A stretch of DNA of 64,000 bases, taken from Escherichia phage V18. The first letter of the stretch is position 1. Every line of letters begins with the position of its first letter. Location of the stretch: sequence record NC_041937.1; one strand, given 5' to 3'. Below are positions 2,006 to 33,370 of the stretch, in pieces. The notes under the pieces were generated by a model. That model did no database searches and was not told where the DNA came from. It was given only the letters and a program-made list of their open reading frames with translations. The position numbers and the translations under genes are program-made.

Positions 2006-3145
2006 TTGAGTAGAGAATATCCACTTATTGAGTCCATAGATTGTCTGGCTGATCTTCTTGAACCTGACGCTATAGTTTATTATGACTTCGATCAGGTTGC
2101 ATATCAAGCTGCAGCAAGTTGTGAAAAAAGGACAATTGAGGTAACACACAAAGCCTCCGGACGTAAGAAGATGTTTAAAACACGAACAGAGTTCTGGGGG
2201 CGGCAGAAGAACACCGTTGGTGGTTGGTTAAAAGCTGAGAATACCAACCGTGAAGCTGCATGTAAAAAGGCTGGCAAGGAGTTTATTCCGTGGACACGAG
2301 AAGATTTCGATGTCTTGGATATCCAAACCCCTGATCCTGTAGAGAACTGCTTGCACACAATTAAGTGTAAAGCCAATGCAGTCCTTAATTATCTCGGTAT
2401 TCCGGAAGATCGGTGCGTGGGGGTACTTGGAGGCACAGGTAATTTCAGACTAGATCTTCCCATGCCGGAAAGATATAAAGCCAACCGTAACAATACTCTT
2501 CGACCACTGCTGCTTGGAGATGCAAGACAGTATCTCCAAAAGCAGTATAATGCTCAAGTGATCAACGGTATCGAGGCTGACGACTGGTTAGCTATCCAGC
2601 AATTTGAAGGTTGGAACCACTACCAAAAAACAGGTAAGTTCAACAAGTTTATTATCTCTATTGATAAGGACCAAAGAACACTACCGGGGCTTGTGTTCGA
2701 TCCCATGCGAAACGATAAGGGAGATTTTGTAAGGGAAACCCCTATGCTGATCGATAACGGTATGGGGAACATCTTCATGAAGCCTAATGGAGAGGTTGGT
2801 GGTTACGGAATGCTGTTCTTCGGATACCAAATGCTGTGTGGTGACTCTGCTGACAACATCAAGCCGTATCAAGGACTTATCGGTAAGGGTAAGTTCGGAG
2901 ATGCCTCAGCATTCTACCTACTGTCTCAGTGCAGCACTCCAAAGGAGATGTGGGTGGCTATTATTGATCAGTACAAGAAGTGGTTCCCGAAAGGTGTTGT
3001 TAAGTATACTGACTTCAATGGTATTGATCGTAGAATTTCCGTAGGTCAATGGATGAGTATAATTTTTGACTGTTTGTATATGAAGCGAACATTCAATGAT
3101 CAAACAAAACTTGTTAACGTTCTTAGAAATGTTGGAGCAATTTGA
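2006..3145 (+). CDS. 5'-3' exonuclease / flap endonuclease (T5 D15 / Pol I 5'-nuclease family)
   Basis: 379 aa; acidic clusters YYDFD, RYKANR, GIEADD, CGDSADNIKPYQGLIGKGKFGDA (helix-hairpin-helix region). Confidence 0.7.
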   Translation: MSREYPLIESIDCLADLLEPDAIVYYDFDQVAYQAAASCEKRTIEVTHKASGRKKMFKTRTEFWGRQKNTVGGWLKAENTNREAACKKAGKEFIPWTREDFDVLDIQTPDPVENCLHTIKCKANAVLNYLGIPEDRCVGVLGGTGNFRLDLPMPERYKANRNNTLRPLLLGDARQYLQKQYNAQVINGIEADDWLAIQQFEGWNHYQKTGKFNKFIISIDKDQRTLPGLVFDPMRNDKGDFVRETPMLIDNGMGNIFMKPNGEVGGYGMLFFGYQMLCGDSADNIKPYQGLIGKGKFGDASAFYLLSQCSTPKEMWVAIIDQYKKWFPKGVVKYTDFNGIDRRISVGQWMSIIFDCLYMKRTFNDQTKLVNVLRNVGAI

Positions 3146-3473
3146 TGACTAAAAATTCTGTAGATAACGCAATTATGGAAGCTGTTTTTGAGGATGATCA
3201 CACAACAGGGACACTTAAAACAAAAAATACATTCGTTGTTGCCACAGGTATGTGGCGGTTGTATGAAGATGACACCATTTCATACATCCTGTACACGGAT
3301 GATTACGCAGATGACCGTGTATGGTCTGCTGTTTTAAAAGAGGATTGTGAGCTGATTGAGGGCGAGCGGTTATGCATGTTCACCAGTGTGGAAACAGATG
3401 TTAAGCTTTGCTCTCTCGTCTTGTTCAAAGATAAGGCTTATGCTCCTGATGAAGGAGAGGAGGATGAGGAAGC

Positions 3474-13956: not shown

Positions 13957-14235
13957 ATGAGCTGCGAAAAATCTTTTTTCATCATCATTTACGGTAAGGA
14001 TAACTGCCCACACTGTGTCAGAGCAAAAGAATTTGCAATCAGCAAAGGTCTGCCTTTTGTATATAAGACACTTGGCGATGGCTACACAAAAGAAGAGCTT
14101 ATTGAGAAGTGTAGTCCAATTGTCCCCAGAACGTTGCCGCAGATCTTCTTAGAAAGCGATCTTGACAGTATCCATATAGGCGGTGCCGACGATTTCATCT
14201 CTTTTGTTAAGAATGGTTTTGGAGAGAAAAAGTGA
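13957..14235 (+). CDS. glutaredoxin / NrdH-like redoxin
   Basis: 92 aa; CPHC active site in IYGKDNCPHCVRAKEF; between the aerobic and anaerobic RNR genes. Confidence 0.7.
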   Translation: MSCEKSFFIIIYGKDNCPHCVRAKEFAISKGLPFVYKTLGDGYTKEELIEKCSPIVPRTLPQIFLESDLDSIHIGGADDFISFVKNGFGEKK

Positions 14236-16354
14236 AAGTTGTAAAACGGGACGGTAGAGAAGAGTTCTATAACGGAATTAAGGTGATCAAGGCGGCAGAG
14301 TCCGCCTTACTTGAGTCTGGACATACTGAAGAAGAAGCTTACCGGATCGCCTGCGCGGTTAATGAAGTTGTTGCTAACAATCTACCAACCGACCAGTGCA
14401 CGATCTCTGTAAAAAATATCCATATCCTTGTTGAAGATGCTCTTATGGATATGGGTTTAAAATGTGCAGCCAGAGAATACATCCAGTATAGACAGACAAG
14501 AGATAATAACAGAGAGGCAGGTGGAAAACTGCTTGCAGATATTAGTGGCTTCTTGGATCGAACTTGTGATGAATTTACAAAAGAAAACGCAAATAAGCCC
14601 ACTAATCATGTACACACTCATCGTGACCTGCTTGCAGGCATCCTTAGCAAACACCTTGCATCAACACAGATCCTGCCAGACCGTGTTTCAGAAGAGCACA
14701 ATAAAGGCTTCATCCATGTGCATGATCTTGACTACTTGATCAGTCCGTTAACAAACTGTTGTTTGGTAAATTATCCAGATATGTTGGAAAACGGATTCAA
14801 CATTGGCAACGCCCATGTCAGTAAGCCGAAGTCAATAGGGGTTGCAACAACAATCCTTAGCCAAATCTCTAGTGCGGTAGCTAGTGCTCAATATGGTGGT
14901 CAGACTATGAGCCATATTGATCATTATCTGGCACAGTATGCTGAAGCGACCTATGAGAAGAACCTTAAATTTTGCCAGGAACATTGGTTGCCAGATGCTG
15001 AGACTGTTGCAATGCAAATGACAGATAAAGACGTGTTTGACAGCATGCAGACGTTGCTTTATCAGATCAACACACTAACCTCGGTAAACGGTAACCCCTT
15101 TTATCACATTAAGTTTAGGTTTGGACACTTCGGTCTTTGGTAGAATGATTACCAAAAACTACCTGAAAGTCCACAAAATGGGTCTTGGTGAAGAACGTAT
15201 TACACCTGTGTTCCCTAAAGTGCTGTTCTTCCTAGAAGAGGGTGTCAACATGAACCCTGGGGATCCTAACTACGATTTGAAACGATTAGCTCTGGAATGC
15301 TGTGCAGAACGTATCTACCTGACTTCGTATCTGTACCACTAAATAGAAAAGTGACAGGCTCGACAGATGGCAAAGTAACGAGCATGGGATATGTAGAAGT
15401 TTCTTATCGAAATATAGCGACCCTGTAACAGGCGAGGAGAAATACCTTGGCAGATTTAACTTAGGCGTTGTTAGCCTTAACCTGCCAATGATTGCGGCAA
15501 AAGCTAAGACGGAAGGTGTTGATTTCTTTGCAGTTCTTGACGAATACTTGGATCTTGCATACGAGGCTCACCTTGTAAGGGTTAATCGTCTAAAAGGAAC
15601 AAAGGCGGGGCAGAACCCCATCATGTGGTGTGAAGGCGCTCTTGCTCGCCTGGATCCCGAAGAGAGTATTGATAAACTCTTCTATGACGGGTACGCTTCC
15701 ATCAGTATTGGGTATATCGGTGTGTATGAAACCTGTCAGATTTTGGGTAGAGAAGGCGACAAGGCTTTAGCTCTTGGAATCCTTCAGCACATGAGAGATG
15801 CTTGTGAGCGATACAAGAAGGAAAGTAGACTAGCATTTAGCTTGTACGGCACTCCTTCTGAGAGTCTATGCTATAAAGCTGCAACCTGTCTGGATCGTGA
15901 ATATCCGGAAGTGTTGAAGCACGAGCATGAATATCTCACCAACAGTTTCCATCAGCCAGTATGGATAAATAGCTCTCCTTTTGATAAGTGGGAGTATGAG
16001 GAAGGTTTTGCTATGATCTCCTCTGGTGGCAACATCGGATACGTAGAGACACCTAACCTGAAAAACAACCTGGATGCTTTAGAGGCCCTTGTTGACTTCG
16101 GGTATAAACACATTATGTATTTTGGTATTAACCAACCTGTAGATAAATGTCTCAAGTGTGGTTTCTCTGGTGAGTTCAGTGCAACAGCTAAAGGCTTTGT
16201 ATGCCCAGAGTGTGGAAACCATGAAGAGGGAACGATCAGTGTAATTCGACGTGTGTCTGGATACCTTTCCAGTCCTAACTCCCGTCCTTACAATAAAGGT
16301 AAGCAAGCGGAAGTTATCGAGCGAGTTAAGCACTACGGAAGTTGTGGTTGCTGA
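14232..16354 (+). CDS. nrdD: anaerobic ribonucleotide reductase (class III), reading frame broken in three places (possible pseudogene or indel errors)
   Basis: N-terminal ATP cone in frame 0 (14232..15143); middle segment …ITLSLGLDTSVFGRMITK…CCAERIY in frame +1; …PDFVSVPLNRKVTGSTDGKVTSMG in frame 0; C-terminal …CRSFLS…GRFNLGVVSLNLP…RVSGY (glycyl radical) and CLKCG…CPECG in frame +2 to 16354. Fragments sum to about 700 aa. Confidence 0.75.
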
Positions 16355-17068: not shown

Positions 17069-17182
17069 ATGGCTAAAAAAGCCTTGAAGAAGGCGTACAA
17101 AAAAGAGATTGCGCTTGAGCTTAAGAAAAAACACAAGCGTGAAAAGAAACATCATGAAGATGAAGAGGGGGTGCAACAGTGA
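17069..17182 (+). CDS. small lysine-rich basic protein (37 aa)
   Basis: ATG at 17069 preceded by AGAGGAGG; translation MAKKALKKAYKKEIALELKKKHKREKKHHEDEEGVQQ; below the 60-aa ORF-track cutoff. Confidence 0.3.
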   Translation: MAKKALKKAYKKEIALELKKKHKREKKHHEDEEGVQQ

Positions 17183-17567
17183 CACAAGAACGTATCGATT
17201 TGGCTAATAAGTTTGTAGATCTCATTTTGCCACGGTTAGTTACTCAACATGCAGATGCTATTTCTACTAATCTTGATGGCTTACGCCTAATGCTGAATCG
17301 CACAGATGACCCTCGTATTCGGGCTGATTTAGAAGCCTCTGCCAACAAACTGGAAAAGTTCTTGCAAGTAGACACGCAAGAAGCCTTACACAAGATTATG
17401 GTGGAAGGTTTCTCTAAAGAATTTACCATTAAAGAGCTTAAGGAGCTGATCCACCAAGAAGAGATGAATATCCGAGTTCAGGCTGTTGCAAGCAGCATGG
17501 AAGCGGCTATTGAAAAACTGTTGCAGTAAAAGTACTTGGCACATCTCAATCTGAAAGGAGTCCCAAC

Positions 17568-18355
17568 ATGGGTCGAGCTAAAGAAACAAAACGCATGCGT
17601 GATGAAGCTAGAGAGGCTCGCAAATCTGATCGCCTGCGTAAGGCTGCTGAGAAATTTGCTGACGAACGAGAGCACACTGCTCCAGCTCTCCGACCAATGA
17701 ATAAGAAGCAGCAAAAGTATCTTGATTACCTAGGGTCGCGTAAAATTATCATTGTAAACGGAGTGTTTGGGTCTGGTAAAACATTCATGGCATCTGCTAT
17801 GCAGGTGACCTTCTGCGTAAGAATGAAATTGATAAGATCATTGTTGCACGTCCTTACGTTCAGACAGGAAAGACTTCAGGATTTAAACCTGGAAATGCAA
17901 TGCAGAAACTGTGGCCCTATCTTCGAAGCATGATGGACACGATTTGTCGTCGTGTTGGCAAAGGTGCTTTTGCCGCAATGCTGGGAGACGGTCAGAACAG
18001 CCGTATCGAGATTTGTGAAGTTGAAAGCATTCGTGGTCGTAGTTTCGATGAGCGATGCTTTGTCCTGATTGACGAGGCACAGCAAACTAACCCTGAAGAA
18101 ATGTTGTCAATTATCACAAGGATCTCTGATCAAGCCACCCTTGTAATTATGGGTGATAATAGCCAACGTGACATCCCTGGTAAATCTGGCCTTGCATGGG
18201 TGACGGATTTCTTTACTCGTCATCCAGATCCTGAGGTTGGAATGATCAGCTTTGATAGTCCAGACGATGTCGTTCGTTCTGGGTTGGGTCGTCAGATCGC
18301 ACTCAATCTTATTGAGGATCGTGCAAATCATATTTGGACCCCTGTTTCCGAGTAA
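17568..18355 (+). CDS. phoH: PhoH-like ATPase, frame interrupted near 17795-17815
   Basis: Walker A GVFGSGKTFMAS in ORF 17568..17933; the PhoH-like continuation (…KIIVARPYVQTGKTSGF…LIDEAQQT…VIMGD) is in the next frame and joins ORF 17900..18355. Confidence 0.65.
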
Positions 18356-18360
18356 TACAG

Positions 18361-18381
18361 AAGGGTGGTTATTCCACCCTT
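18361..18381 (+). terminator. hairpin after phoH
   Basis: AAGGGTGG-ttat-TCCACCCTT perfect stem. Confidence 0.4.
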
Positions 18382-18399: not shown

Positions 18400-18428
18400 T
18401 TGACAAATAGGTAAGCTTTAGATATTAT
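18400..18428 (+). promoter_or_regulatory. sigma70-like promoter
   Basis: TTGACA 18400-18405, 17 bp spacer, TATTAT 18423-18428. Confidence 0.5.
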
Positions 18429-18828
18429 TATCGGACAAAACAGAGAGAAGGACAGTATGGCTACAATACAAGAGAAACTGAATAAAATATACTGCCTGTT
18501 TGTCTATAACGGCGAGACAATTTTGGCAAATAAAGGATCCAAGAATGTGTGGACCAAGGACAGCGGTGGTAATATAATTAACTTAGCGTTGCTACGTGAG
18601 CGCCGACACAGATTCTTTATCGAGTCTCGAATTATTGAAAGCAGCACTTGCTACAGAACAGGCGATAAAGTAATTGTTGACAATGATACGTGGTATGTGG
18701 TAGACTGGCAATCATTGAGTTGTGATGCTTCTGACAATCGTAAGTATTCCATAGTGATTGCTAAATAAAGGTAAATGTGAATCAGGTTTAAATAAATAGC
18801 TTTCAACTTCCAATATTAAGGATTTCTC

Positions 18829-19875
18829 ATGAATTTAACACCTCGCAGCACCATGGTACACGGCATGAAAGAAAAACAGAACGGTTTCGAACCTATGAGT
18901 AATAAAATGTTTGGTATGCCGGGTGGTATCATGGAAACATACAGCTACCCAACACCTGTTGTTGACCACGTTCTTTATATCGACGATTTGGAAGACCTGC
19001 AGGATCATATGTCTCGTCTGCAGACGATCCGTATGGCTCAGCCGGAAGAAAGCATTCGGGTGATCATCAATAGCCCTGGGGGTTGCGTGCACATTGCAAT
19101 GGCTTATCTACAGGCATTCCGCGAGTCTCAGGCAAGCGTTGTTGCACATGCTGAAGGGATGTGCTGCTCTGCGGGAACAATCTTATGGCTGGGTTGTAAA
19201 GAACGCACTGTGGCTCCGGACACAGAATTTATGTTCCACTACTATCAAGGTGGCACTTATGGTAATGGTGTGAACATGAATACTCAGGTCAGCTACTGGA
19301 AAAAACGTTTTGAACGCCTGATCGAAAAATACTACGGTGGGGTGCTGACAGAAGATGAGATCGCATCCATCACAGCTGGTGGTGAAGTGTGGTTGGACGG
19401 AGAGGAGCTGGCAGCTCGAACTGGAGCCATCATTCTGGATGAAGGCAACATACAACGCATCCAGAATGGACAAAAACCTAAAAAGCTTCTGGCAAAAGGT
19501 GATGAAGGCGTGTTAGGTGAAGCAGGTCTTCCGGAGATTCACCAGTGCACCTCTTTAGATGAGCTAGTTCATGCTGTTGAATCTGCGAAAGCGGTTGGTT
19601 CGAAAGGTGATGTTCACACTGTGTTCCTGAATCTGCAGATGGAAAGTGGTGAGACCATTAAGATTGCCTTAGGTGAGATTACCTCAGAAGATCTGCAGCG
19701 ATTCTCTGTCGTTGAACTTCAAGACATTCTGTCCCAATTGAAGACAACCCTGAACGGCGGTGAAGAGGTTAAGGTAAAAGATAAGACTCGCAAGCGTCTG
19801 GTGGACAATATTATTAAAACAGCAAAAGAACTCAATGAAAAAATCCTGGGTGCAGGAATTGTCGAAGAAGCTTAA
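18829..19875 (+). CDS. ClpP-family serine peptidase with about 150-aa C-terminal extension
   Basis: 348 aa; INSPGGCVHIAMA and AEGMCCSAGTILWLG correspond to the ClpP INSPGG and active-site Ser segments. Confidence 0.5.
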   Translation: MNLTPRSTMVHGMKEKQNGFEPMSNKMFGMPGGIMETYSYPTPVVDHVLYIDDLEDLQDHMSRLQTIRMAQPEESIRVIINSPGGCVHIAMAYLQAFRESQASVVAHAEGMCCSAGTILWLGCKERTVAPDTEFMFHYYQGGTYGNGVNMNTQVSYWKKRFERLIEKYYGGVLTEDEIASITAGGEVWLDGEELAARTGAIILDEGNIQRIQNGQKPKKLLAKGDEGVLGEAGLPEIHQCTSLDELVHAVESAKAVGSKGDVHTVFLNLQMESGETIKIALGEITSEDLQRFSVVELQDILSQLKTTLNGGEEVKVKDKTRKRLVDNIIKTAKELNEKILGAGIVEEA

Positions 19876-19887
19876 ACATTAATTCTA

Positions 19888-19910
19888 AAGCCCTCTTCGG
19901 AGGGCTTTTA
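19888..19910 (+). terminator. rho-independent terminator
   Basis: AGCCCTC-ttcg-GAGGGCT followed by TTTTA. Confidence 0.5.
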
Positions 19911-19926
19911 TGATCTGGAGATTTGC

Positions 19927-20460
19927 ATGACTTGTGCTAGAAAACCTGATGAACAACGTAACGCCTACGATGAGTATGTGACACCGGAGTGGTGTGCAGA
20001 AGGGCTGTATGACCTTATTCCGTTCCCAGAAGACTGGACCTACTTAGAGCCTTGCAGGAATAGTGCCTCAGGTGTGTTCTACTCCCGTATGCCGTTAGGA
20101 TCTGCATGGGGAGAAATCCAAGAAGGTGTTGACTATCTGAATACAGAATACAACCATGTTGACTGTATTATCACCAACCCACCATACAGTTTGGCTCGTG
20201 AGTTTGTAGACAAGGCGTTGAAAGATGCTGACGTAGTTATTATGCTTTTGCGTCTTAATTTTCTGGAAAGCAAAGCCAGATTTGAATGGTGGCTTGATAA
20301 TGCACCTACCACTGTGATCACAATATCTAAGCGTCCATCTTTTCAATCAAATGGCAGAACTGACGGGCAAGCATATGCATATTTTGTGTGGGATAAGAAA
20401 AACCGTTTAGGCTTGCCGCCATTTATGTGGTTGGCACCACCAGAGGTAGACCTGAAATGA
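19927..20460 (+). CDS. small N6-adenine DNA methyltransferase (phage Dam-like)
   Basis: 177 aa; catalytic motif CIITNPPYSLAREF (NPPY). Confidence 0.5.
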   Translation: MTCARKPDEQRNAYDEYVTPEWCAEGLYDLIPFPEDWTYLEPCRNSASGVFYSRMPLGSAWGEIQEGVDYLNTEYNHVDCIITNPPYSLAREFVDKALKDADVVIMLLRLNFLESKARFEWWLDNAPTTVITISKRPSFQSNGRTDGQAYAYFVWDKKNRLGLPPFMWLAPPEVDLK

Positions 20461-21013
20461 AGATGAGTGCTAAGGACAAATTACACCAGTTAGCGCTAAA
20501 ACGTCCTGTAACGCTCCCTGACGAGCTTAACTCCATTTATGATGCGATTGTAGGGGAGATACAAAATAAAGCGTTAGCAGGCTTTCTGGGATGCGGATTT
20601 TCGATAAATCTACCCTCGCATCTCTCAGATTACTTCCCGCACATTGTTGGAGATTTGAGAGCAGGAGGTCTGCAGGTAGATGTTGTTGGCATCTCCCCAG
20701 AGAAAAATAACACGGTTGCCTACTTGACAGTAACCTGGTAGTTGTGTATTGTTGTTCTCAACAAGGGGGAGTCATTTATGTACAAGTCATTTTCAATTTA
20801 CTCAAGACAGGGGAAACACTACACAGAGATCCTGATCACTCAGAAAAAATCTGTAGAAGGTGAGTGGGAATATCACCATAAAATGTTGCGTCCAGATTGG
20901 GTTTTTGATAGACTTATTGCCATGATCCCTCTTGGAGAAGTATATCCTCTGACAGGCGGGAGGGATGTTTGGGATTTAATTGCTTACATAGATTCATTTA
21001 AGGAGCCCAGTGT

Positions 21014-31012: not shown

Positions 31013-31362
31013 CGCACAATTAGCTGCCCGGCTAAAGTGCTGGAAGCACCTATAACACATCTTTCAACTAAATTTCCTACCACCACAATCACTTACCTCC
31101 CGCACATGACTGTTTGCTTGTTTAGTGAGCAGTCATGCCTTGACATTCTTGCCTATCCTGATAAAATTAAGTTCTTCTCTTTTCTTTTACCGAGTAATTC
31201 GGGTTTTCTGTTCTCTTCGGTTTGAAGGGGTATGGAGATACACCTGAGTGAACAGGGTGAACAACCGAACCATTAGCTATGGCATTAGCATGGCGAAGCG
31301 GACGGGTGACGAAAGAGGGGCCGGAGGACACCAGTCACTGCCATATGATATATGGGTGATAA

Positions 31363-31902
31363 CCTGAAGAGTCTGAATAAGTGTTTAAGTACCAGTCAGA
31401 GGAAAAGGTGAATGGTAGCCGAAGGGGGGAGGGGGGTTTCTTGTATCTTTAATTTGTATATTATGTATACACTTGTAAACCAATCTAATCTGAATCTGTT
31501 TACCACACAAAGCGGATAGAGACAAATATTGCCTATTAAACTTGAATTATTTATAGAAAATACCACAACACCCCTTAAGTCTTTGATTTACACACAAATC
31601 CTACAGATATTCAACCTCCATATTTAACATACTTGTAACATATTCCATACTCTACCTGTCTGATCAATTTCCCAACTACATTCTCATATTTTCCCTGTCT
31701 GTACTACCCCTGCCCCGCCGGGAGTCCCGTCATATCTGGCTTTCCAGCAAATATCACACCCACAAATATCATTGCCTGAAGAGGGTTTCATCCCATAATA
31801 CCTGCCTTACCTGAAGAGCGCTTCATACACCACGTAAATTTTTTAATTGACCTCCCCCTGCCCCTCCGGAGAGGTTGGCTTTTCCCACACAGACCTGAAG
31901 AG
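31363..31902. repeat. dispersed CCTGAAGAG repeat family in the inter-arm non-coding region
   Basis: Exact 9-mer at 31363-31371, 31775-31783, 31810-31818, 31894-31902; also CCCTGCCCCGCCGGGAG (about 31708) and CCCTGCCCCTCCGGAGAG (about 31853). Confidence 0.5.
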
Positions 31903-32495
31903 TCAGCCAGAAATATCTGAATAGGCCCGATCTGCCCAGTCAGGAGCCAGTAGCGACTGGAGTGCTGCCAGGCGGACGGAATGGGAATACTTCTCATTCT
32001 TATAACAATTCTCAAATATCGAGGCAGTGAGAGAAATTAATAGGCCAGGCCGTTCACACAGTGGCACAACATTTGCAACCTATCCTGTGGGGATGAATGA
32101 GAATACCTATCATTGTGAGAACTATTATCATTACGGGCAATTTAACATAATACCCATTATGCGCACCACTGGCGATACATACAGGGATTGATACCATGAG
32201 TTACAGTTTACACACATAACAATTATATTTCTTACTATTTGTGTGGGATATAGTTAGCAGCCAATAGATTAGATATTGACCTGTAGACTTCCAACCGTCT
32301 GGACGTCTAAACGCCCACACACCAAGGGTTATACATACATCGCTGAATGTAAACAGGGCCGCAAAAATGCTACCATACCAGTTTGTAAATTTTTCATGCA
32401 GCACTTGACAAAGAGGAGAAAAACTTGTCTGACACAATGTCACACAATATGACACTTTACACTGGACACACTAGGCACAAAAAAAAAAAACTGCA

Positions 32496-32720
32496 GTGAC
32501 TAGGTCACCCCTTCAGGTGTTTCTATGACATAATATAAAAGCAGGGCAACTATTACAAATCTAAAGTTGCCTTGCTTGTTATGTCATGATTAACTAAATA
32601 CAAGGCAACTATGATCTGATTAATAGTTTGCAGACAAACTATCACGGGGGTGATGGTTACTGCTTTTATATTATGTCGCGACTCCGTCGCGCCATGCCAT
32701 TCGTTTGCATAGTTGCCTTA
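32496..32720. repeat. iteron-like locus: nested inverted repeats and GGCAACT repeats (candidate origin/operator)
   Basis: Palindrome GTGACTAGGTCAC 32496-32508; 18-bp perfect inverted repeat GACATAATATAAAAGCAG 32527-32544 vs 32660-32677; CAAGGCAACT(T/A) at 32601-32610 (+) and 32564-32574 (-); AAGGCAACTATG at 32602-32613 (+) and 32708-32719 (-). Confidence 0.55.
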
Positions 32721-33370
32721 TTGTTACAGATAAAATAATTGTATTGTTAATTATTTCTTATCTTTCTATTAGTCATCTAATGATTCCAGTTAGTATAGTA
32801 ACGTATAGTAAACATTAGACGACTAAATATTTCTCTGTTTATGATAACTCACCGTAATAATTTCGGACTGTTTACGAAAAATGTTGACACCCTGGCTGAT
32901 TTATGTTATGCAATTTAAACGAATAATTATTTTATGCAGGTATTGACTATTCCGTTATTCTATGGTTGGAATAAATACTTAGCAGGCTATAGAATGGTGA
33001 GCGTACGTAAATTCTGAGATCTGTCGGCTATAGTTATACCCGATTTTTCACGTAGAACACGCTTTCGATGCTGTGTAAGTGTATGACTTATAAAGATTTT
33101 TAGTTGTTGACAAGATATTGGAGATGTGCATCAGGTTAAAATTTGTGCAATAGCGGCATTACGTGCACTTTTGGGAGAGAAAACGGGTAAAAATGGACTT
33201 GCTACCACACAATGAAAAATTATGCAATAGCTATTTTACATGTATGTTTGTACAGTGCGGGCAATTGATGGCTCGTCAATTATTCCACTTGCCAGGTAGG
33301 GCCGTTTATGGTAGGGGGAAGAGCAGACAAAAAGAAAGGGGCCTAAGCCCTTGATAATTCAGTTAAAAAA

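Follow-up and report, generated by a model that had tools for sequence, protein, structure and literature searches.

A ClpP-like protease gene in the genome of Escherichia phage V18 (NC_041937.1) probably encodes a serine peptidase of the ClpP fold that is not a virion component, is made in the early to middle, DNA-metabolism stage of infection and takes effect inside the infected cell instead of serving head maturation. The gene lies in a 64,000-nt stretch of V18 DNA that was analysed as a whole and is referred to here as the window. The first-pass annotation of this stretch had described a ClpP-family peptidase in the DNA-metabolism module and had proposed for it either a non-morphogenetic role or displacement of a prohead protease; of these two readings, the non-morphogenetic one is the better supported. 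Non-head ClpP-like genes occur in many unrelated virulent phage groups, among them rV5-like and Pakpunavirus phages, which are candidates for therapy, and the cholera phage ICP1; their usual label is 'ATP-dependent Clp protease subunit'. Two points sharpen the question of what such proteins do, namely that the V18 protein does not appear to be a head protease and that the rV5-type family to which it belongs seems to lack the docking pocket for ClpX/ClpA. As a result of a genome scan the gene itself is ordinary, having long been annotated, correctly recognised and found at its usual location.

The protease gene and its transcription unit

The protease ORF is intact, with an ATG start codon preceded, 6 nt upstream, by an AAGGA ribosome-binding site. 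Its product matched Pfam CLP_protease (PF00574) over residues 59-168 with 47.7 bits against a gathering cutoff of 20.2 (E=2e-12), and the PHROG family phrog_5410, 'ATP-dependent protease', over almost the entire profile (E=2.3e-153; residues 24-344 of the protease against profile positions 4-322 of 323), with a further match to phrog_1827 (E=2.6e-40). These family matches, together with the best solved sequences and folds, which are all ClpP, bear out the assignment to the ClpP family made in the first-pass annotation. Two other Pfam families of the ClpP clan were matched below threshold (NfeD1b_N, 18.8 bits against 40; SDH_protease, 15.8 bits against 31.3), while the Pfam search reported no match to Peptidase_S49, the SppA-type Ser-Lys group that includes lambda gpC-like proteins.

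The region containing the protease is 98-99% identical to that of rV5-like Escherichia phages of the genus Vequintavirus, and the 348-aa protein is 100% identical to the deposited HdK5_00193. It is the same gene as rV5 gp122, which Table S3 of a 2013 paper (PMC3606486) gives as 'ClpP (ATP-dependent) protease subunit', and as the BASEL phage Bas55 'ClpP-like protease', all of them falling in PHROG 5410 with a protein identity of 96-100%. The rV5-like counterparts have the same neighbours, promoter and terminator as V18 and show no sequence-level difference. Gene, position and label have been known for years in rV5-like phages, the annotation dating from at least 2013, and the three recur across more than 100 deposited genomes.

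The elements surrounding the protease gene are collected in Table 1. The hairpin that follows phoH separates it from the protease unit, and the strong promoter-like site downstream of this hairpin coincides with a PhagePromoter annotation in phage Gotham. The 103-aa ORF that comes next precedes the protease in every Vequintavirinae-type locus examined, and neither the consensus scan nor the sequence revealed a terminator between these two genes. Downstream, between the protease stop codon and the methyltransferase, lies a hairpin with the core stem GCCCUC-UUCG-GAGGGC, followed by U-rich sequence. The consensus scan missed this terminator, but ARNold calls one at the corresponding site of HdK5 and of Gotham, so that the claim that the protease has a terminator of its own was borne out by the V18 hairpin and by calls in two deposited relatives. 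Given this succession of promoter, 103-aa ORF, protease and terminator, the 103-aa ORF and the protease are most simply read as a two-gene operon that has a promoter and a terminator to itself. The adenine methyltransferase is kept downstream of the protease across Vequintavirinae-type loci. The earlier statement that the protease lies between phoH and a methyltransferase therefore holds as to the methyltransferase downstream and phoH upstream, but the 103-aa ORF intervenes and the phoH gene is frameshifted. PADLOC returned no defence-system match for the protease or for its 103-aa operon partner, and tRNA and Rfam scans of the 64-kb window found nothing.

Table 1. Features of the V18 protease locus (positions in the window)
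Feature	Position	Strand	Evidence
phoH-like ATPase gene, in two ORFs through a 1-nt deletion at ~17798	17568..18355	+	
Hairpin after phoH, separating phoH from the protease unit	18361..18381	+	dG -13.7 kcal/mol, z -2.9
Sigma-70-type promoter-like site, TTGACA-17-TATTAT, 11/12 matches	18400..18428	+	Consensus scan
103-aa ORF, probably co-transcribed with the protease downstream	18457..18768	+	PHROG 5456, E=2e-39
ClpP-like protease gene, 348 aa, orthologue of rV5 gp122	18829..19875	+	PHROG 5410, Pfam PF00574, 100% identity to HdK5 protein
Predicted ClpP-fold catalytic core, residues 45-215	18961..19473	+	AF2 pLDDT >90
Codons of predicted catalytic residues Ser114 and His137	19168-19170; 19237-19239	+	Within ClpP core
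Variable disordered linker, residues 216-242	19474..19554	+	pLDDT <50 for 225-238; variable in length and sequence between aligned homologues
C-terminal alpha/beta domain, residues 243-341 (helix, beta-hairpin, two helices; orphan fold)	19555..19851	+	
Intrinsic-terminator-like hairpin 3′ of the protease	19887..19908	+	dG -14.9 kcal/mol, z -2.3
N6-adenine DNA methyltransferase	19927..20460	+	PHROG 799, E=5.5e-67

Separation from head morphogenesis

No head genes were found within the 64-kb window. Because the window corresponds, in reverse orientation, to about 61.7-125.7 kb of phage JeffSchatz, the head module falls outside it; on the linear JeffSchatz record the head genes lie about 100 kb from the position of the protease. 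There they form an array of portal, a 139-aa protease, scaffold, decoration protein and major capsid protein, in which the 139-aa protein, between portal and scaffold, is an XkdF/S78_2 protease (PF14550, E=9e-18). The same portal-protease-scaffold-decoration-capsid array is present in Pakpunavirus EPA3. The V18 ClpP-like protein is a second protease, separate from this head-module enzyme, and the V18 genome type uses an XkdF/S78-type head protease in place of a ClpP-related one.

Virion proteomics, one of the checks proposed for this gene, is available from published mass spectrometry of two relatives, and in both cases the ClpP-like protein is missing. In rV5 virions, portal, capsid, decoration, sheath, tube and fibre proteins were identified and gp122 was not among them. 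In Certrevirus CB7 virions, 26 proteins were identified, all from the structural region bar one unrelated exception; they include the XkdF-type protease CB7_5, and the ClpP-like protein was not found. The rV5 paper also places genes 82-163, among which the protease gene falls, in a transcription unit distinct from that of the late genes 27-66.

Additional information on timing comes from the ICP1 homologue, gp211, with an identity of 27-36%. RNA-seq of ICP1 showed that a nucleotide-metabolism subset peaking at 12 min lies within gp176-gp211 (PMC7567579), a range that the paper names as such, not naming gp211 singly, and of which gp211 is the last gene. The ICP1 capsid cluster gp122-126, with the predicted protease gp125, is late and peaks at 16 min (PMC7567579). 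By analogy with this homologue, and considering the type of promoter that precedes the operon, we infer that expression of the V18 protease would be early to middle. The nucleotide-metabolism, non-head setting of the gene is in turn kept across many phage genera.

These data bear directly on the alternative that the V18 protein is a displaced or second head-maturation protease, which would enter proheads via its C-terminal domain and cut capsid or internal proteins. Domains for targeting or scaffolding at the C-terminus are common among prohead proteases. Beyond the families to which it belongs, the next-best PHROGs for the V18 protein are head-maturation proteases, among them phrog_1684 with E=6.6e-22 and a match that runs into the linker, to residue 253. 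The best NCBIfam match is likewise NF045542, 'head maturation protease, ClpP-related', at 60.4 bits, a higher score than that of any cellular ClpP model. This score is, however, half of the curated cutoff of 120, and the PHROG head-protease families gave E values of 1e-8 to 7e-22 against 2e-153 for PHROG 5410. An XkdF-type protease already occupies the canonical position in the head module and was detected in CB7 virions, from which, as from those of rV5, the ClpP-like protein is absent. Moreover, the gene stands about 100 kb from the head genes and behind a sigma-70-type promoter, the ICP1 homologue falls in an earlier-peaking nucleotide-metabolism range whereas the ICP1 capsid protease gp125 is late, and the C-terminal domain is predicted to be small, globular and of alpha/beta type, with no coiled-coil scaffold. 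Maturation proteases often exit the head, so a transient prohead role may be compatible with absence from mature virions. Taking both sides together, we consider a function in head maturation quite unlikely.

In comparison with the ClpP-related head-maturation proteases as a group (NF045542; PHROGs 94, 1684, 2976 and 133, including protease-capsid fusions), the V18 protein has the ClpP-like fold in common and a weak-to-moderate sequence match below the curated cutoff, but it differs in that its gene is not beside portal or capsid genes, the protein is not in virions and the range of its homologue is not late. Because it scores slightly higher on the models of phage ClpP-related head proteases than on those of cellular ClpP, common ancestry with head proteases is possible. 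As a statement about function, the notion of a displaced prohead protease found no support, since a separate XkdF/S78-type enzyme sits beside the portal gene; nor did homology mark the V18 protein as a canonical prohead protease with structural genes nearby (60 against 120 bits, NF045542). The non-morphogenetic role suggested as the other option gained support from that head enzyme, from virion proteomes that lack the ClpP-like protein, from the non-head context and from the timing in ICP1.

Catalytic core, docking pocket and C-terminal domain

An AlphaFold2 (AF2) monomer model, computed from 39 homologues, predicted a disordered N-terminus (residues 1-44) followed by the catalytic core. In Foldseek searches of the PDB, the top 50 matches were all ClpP, with a target-normalised TM of ~0.7 over 160-170 columns, and the best solved sequence matches were all cellular ClpP. 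Ser114 and His137 align with Ser97 and His122 of E. coli ClpP and are invariant (39/39 sequences), and the NSPGG oxyanion-hole motif is conserved in the V18-type family. The predicted fold, the invariant Ser-His pair and this motif suggest that the protease is very probably catalytically active. The equivalent of E. coli Asp171 is Glu186 in V18, and in the family it is Gln in 34 of the 39 sequences, Glu in 4 and Asp in 1, in a register set from secondary structure and by eye; as the third residue of the triad is Glu here and Gln in 34/39 relatives, catalytic efficiency is in doubt. Overall, the V18 protease resembles cellular ClpP (MEROPS S14; E. coli ClpP) in its fold, its Ser-His pair, the NSPGG motif and a long handle helix, but departs from it in the Glu/Gln at the Asp171 position, in a different N-terminal gating region and in the added C-terminal domain.

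Association of ClpP with its ATPases involves a hydrophobic pocket for the IGF/LGF loops of ClpX/ClpA, which in E. coli ClpP is formed by Y60, Y62, F82, I90, M92, F112, L114 and L189. Five of the seven alignable pocket residues are replaced in the V18-type family by conserved polar or charged residues: Y60 by R77, F82 by E99 and M92 by E109 (37/39 sequences each), and I90 by H107 and F112 by T127 (36/39 each). L114 is changed to S/A, Y62, changed to I/V, is the sole position still hydrophobic, and L189 is not alignable. From this replacement in alignment and model we infer that the V18 protease would not act as a canonical ClpXP/ClpAP subunit. Results with the curated NCBIfam models point in the same direction, with 33.2 bits against a cutoff of 308.6 for TIGR00493 (clpP) and 21-39 bits against 228-361 for the other ClpP models. 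With both these cutoffs and that of NF045542 missed, the protein counts, by curated sequence criteria, neither as a bona fide ClpP nor as a head-maturation protease and is best described as a ClpP-fold Ser-His peptidase.

We also considered that the protein might be a genuine ClpP subunit that docks on host ClpX or ClpA, by itself or together with host ClpP in mixed rings, and diverts ATP-dependent proteolysis. Passage of the Pfam CLP_protease gathering threshold, the fact that the nearest solved sequences and folds are all ClpP, the conserved catalytic Ser and His, and the use of this label by hundreds of deposited records speak for such a subunit, but the residues that would contact the ATPase are now conserved as charged or polar at five of seven alignable positions, the curated ClpP equivalog models are missed widely (33-39 bits against 228-309), the N-terminal gating region is unlike that of ClpP and disordered in the prediction, and the Asp171 equivalent is mostly Gln in the family. 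On balance, a ClpP subunit in this sense seems a rather improbable identity for the V18 protein. The 'ATP-dependent' label carried in Vequintavirinae genomes is an annotation by similarity to which the tests made here lend no support, and the name 'ATP-dependent Clp protease subunit' is unsupported.

The C-terminal extension, which the first-pass annotation had put at 150 aa, is real but shorter than stated, at about 135 aa, the core ending near residue 215. The structure prediction that had been recommended for it resolved a disordered linker (residues 216-242) and an alpha/beta domain (residues 243-341) that was modelled confidently and separately from the core. This domain is conserved across the Vequintavirinae-type family. 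An exhaustive HMMER search of 1.8 billion representative proteins recovered as relatives of the extension only its own family, plus repeat artefacts; the weak matches P0108-P0110 were rejected because they are tandem-repeat proteins, in which repetition raises the score artificially. Homology to the extensions of ICP1 gp211 and of the F99 protein was not demonstrable (hhalign probability <1%), and a BFVD fold search with the domain returned one match, a protein of ~300 aa that is probably a family member. Because the domain is tethered and conserved, it may help to recognise partners or substrates, or act as a gate.

A non-virion peptidase acting in the infected cell would, on these data, operate as follows. 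The protease would be produced early to middle in infection, while DNA metabolism is under way, and could assemble, as ClpP does, into a ring-shaped, self-compartmentalising peptidase. It would work independently of ClpX/ClpA, in keeping with the polar docking pocket in the monomer model and the alignment, and the flexibly tethered C-terminal domain could provide recognition of a partner or substrate, or gating. As substrates it would take proteins of the host or the phage whose turnover falls in mid-infection. A more specific and, in our judgement, unlikely version sees a phage-specific, differently regulated compartmental protease, in which a conserved polar surface stands in for the docking pocket and an orphan C-terminal domain is added; such an enzyme might be gated or targeted by that domain or coupled to another phage factor, for instance the often linked PhoH-like ATPase, and might be directed at host proteins (in takeover, counter-defence or a block of cell division) or at phage proteins during mid-infection.

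Relatives in other phages and linkage to phoH

Profile searches place the V18 protease in what is, by its scores, a distinct and widespread clade of phage non-head ClpP-like proteins. With an HMM of the family core, Vequintavirinae-type proteins scored 270-330 bits, and a second tier of non-head forms scored 84-137 bits over nearly the full length. This tier comprises proteins of ICP1, Vibrio phage F99, Otagovirus, Pakpunavirus, Barbavirus, Acinetobacter BS46, T5-like Klebsiella phages, an N4-like Dorisvirus and a Schizo-T4-like phage. Head-maturation proteases from small viral contigs, at 32-72 bits, and E. coli ClpP, at 43 bits, matched only part of the profile. The division in PHROGs agrees, in that the small-contig proteins are head-maturation proteases of the phrog_94 type, some of them fused to capsid proteins, and the N4-like copy falls in phrog_1827.

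The short-form lineages were examined one by one. In these non-head proteases (PHROG 1827), the ClpP-like core extends nearly from end to end and the Ser and His are invariant; their genes sit among nucleotide-metabolism or early genes, as in V18, and not among head genes. Most are ~180-240 aa long and do not have the C-terminal domain of V18, although those of ICP1 and F99 carry extensions. The polar patch formed by R77, E99, H107, E109 and T127 is specific to the Vequintavirinae-type family and is not shared by the short forms. Our literature search found no functional study of a phage-encoded non-head ClpP; a CRISPRi-ART study included the rV5-like phage EdH4, targeting only its capsid and rII genes.

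In 17 of 18 Vequintavirinae-type viral contigs, a PhoH HMM detected a same-strand phoH 0.8-2.8 kb upstream of the protease, and phoH is likewise upstream in 4MG, Certrevirus, POP18, ICP1, F99, Otagovirus, Barbavirus and BS46. The linkage between PhoH and the protease is recurrent in about ten phage lineages, but it is not obligatory. An obligate PhoH-protease pair was weakened as a candidate by Pakpunavirus EPA3, which has the protease and no PhoH in its genome.

Recurrent linkage raises the alternative that the protease and the neighbouring PhoH-like P-loop ATPase form a phage-specific ATPase-protease pair. Across Vequintavirus, Seunavirus, Certrevirus, POP18, ICP1, F99, Otagovirus, Barbavirus and BS46, phoH keeps the same strand and order, 0-4 small genes upstream, while the intervening and flanking genes vary between lineages; phoH and the protease gene share 8 nt in Otagovirus and are separated by 11 nt in Barbavirus. 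The polar pocket would, besides, leave space for a partner other than ClpX. Several observations nonetheless make such a pair very unlikely. To our knowledge PhoH is not an AAA+ unfoldase. Besides EPA3, no adjacent PhoH accompanies the protease in the T5-like, N4-like and T4-like phages or at locus L026, and in V18 itself phoH is not only frameshifted but also set apart from the protease unit by a hairpin and a promoter. Since the genomes of the linked lineages follow a related plan, inherited synteny suffices to account for the linkage. In view of EPA3, of the unlinked lineages and of the state of the V18 locus, the simpler explanation is that a related group of myoviruses inherited this gene order. 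At the Barbavirus locus, a Dam methylase gene follows the protease, in the same position as the V18 methyltransferase. The phoH gene of BS46 had been annotated as hypothetical.

Interrupted phoH and nrdD reading frames

The phoH gene of the window (17568-18355) is split into two ORFs, the cause being a 1-nt deletion at ~17798 relative to phage JeffSchatz, where CTGCCTATG in JeffSchatz is changed to CTGCTATG in the window. PhoH was also found annotated as two pieces in several deposited relatives among the nucleotide matches of the region. The split could be either a real frameshift or pseudogene common to these relatives or a sequencing error that recurs.

The gene for the anaerobic ribonucleotide reductase, nrdD (14232-16354), is likewise present as three ORFs, while the JeffSchatz gene is intact. 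Comparison with JeffSchatz located the breaks at several small indels, near 15092, 15318 and 15389-15410. These breaks either mark a pseudogene or reflect poor sequence quality in this patch. In phage slur16, an HNH endonuclease is inserted in the same gene.

Neighbours of the proteases and their annotation in relatives

Two small ORFs, corresponding to PHROGs 12158 and 7650, accompany the phoH/protease/methyltransferase block across Vequintavirinae-type loci.

Small ORFs of the protease block and inverted repeat of the window
Feature	Position	PHROG	Remark
Small ORF, function not assigned	17179-17529	12158 or 7650	Accompanies the protease block
Small ORF, function not assigned	20427-20741	12158 or 7650	Accompanies the protease block
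Perfect inverted repeat, 18 nt	32527-32544 and 32660-32677		Inside the gene-poor stretch

In Acinetobacter phage BS46, gp12 (positions 2326-3150 of locus L009), which is annotated as 'hypothetical protein', belongs to the PhoH family of ATPases, matching a phage PhoH profile at E=1.5e-60, and an HNH homing endonuclease gene separates it from the ClpP-like protease.

Regarding the head module, the XkdF/S78_2 prohead protease of JeffSchatz (L001:3954-4373) matches PHROG 1530, which carries the label 'DNA methyltransferase', and the equivalent gene of Pakpunavirus EPA3, located between portal and scaffold (L059:28465-28935), is annotated 'methyltransferase'. This label on the XkdF/S78_2 protease is probably a misannotation that has been propagated.

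Strand-switch region and host labels

The stretch at ~31230-33160 contains few genes, comprises the G+C minimum of the window and is the place where the coding strand switches. Scans for tRNAs and Rfam families gave no match inside this stretch, which probably corresponds to the 'non-coding' box of the rV5 genome map.

Finally, the nucleotide matches of the region included 19 'Campylobacter phage' records (e.g. MG065635.1 and MG065653.1) whose stated host is Campylobacter jejuni. These records share ~97.6% nucleotide identity with E. coli rV5-like phages across the region, and their host labels look doubtful.
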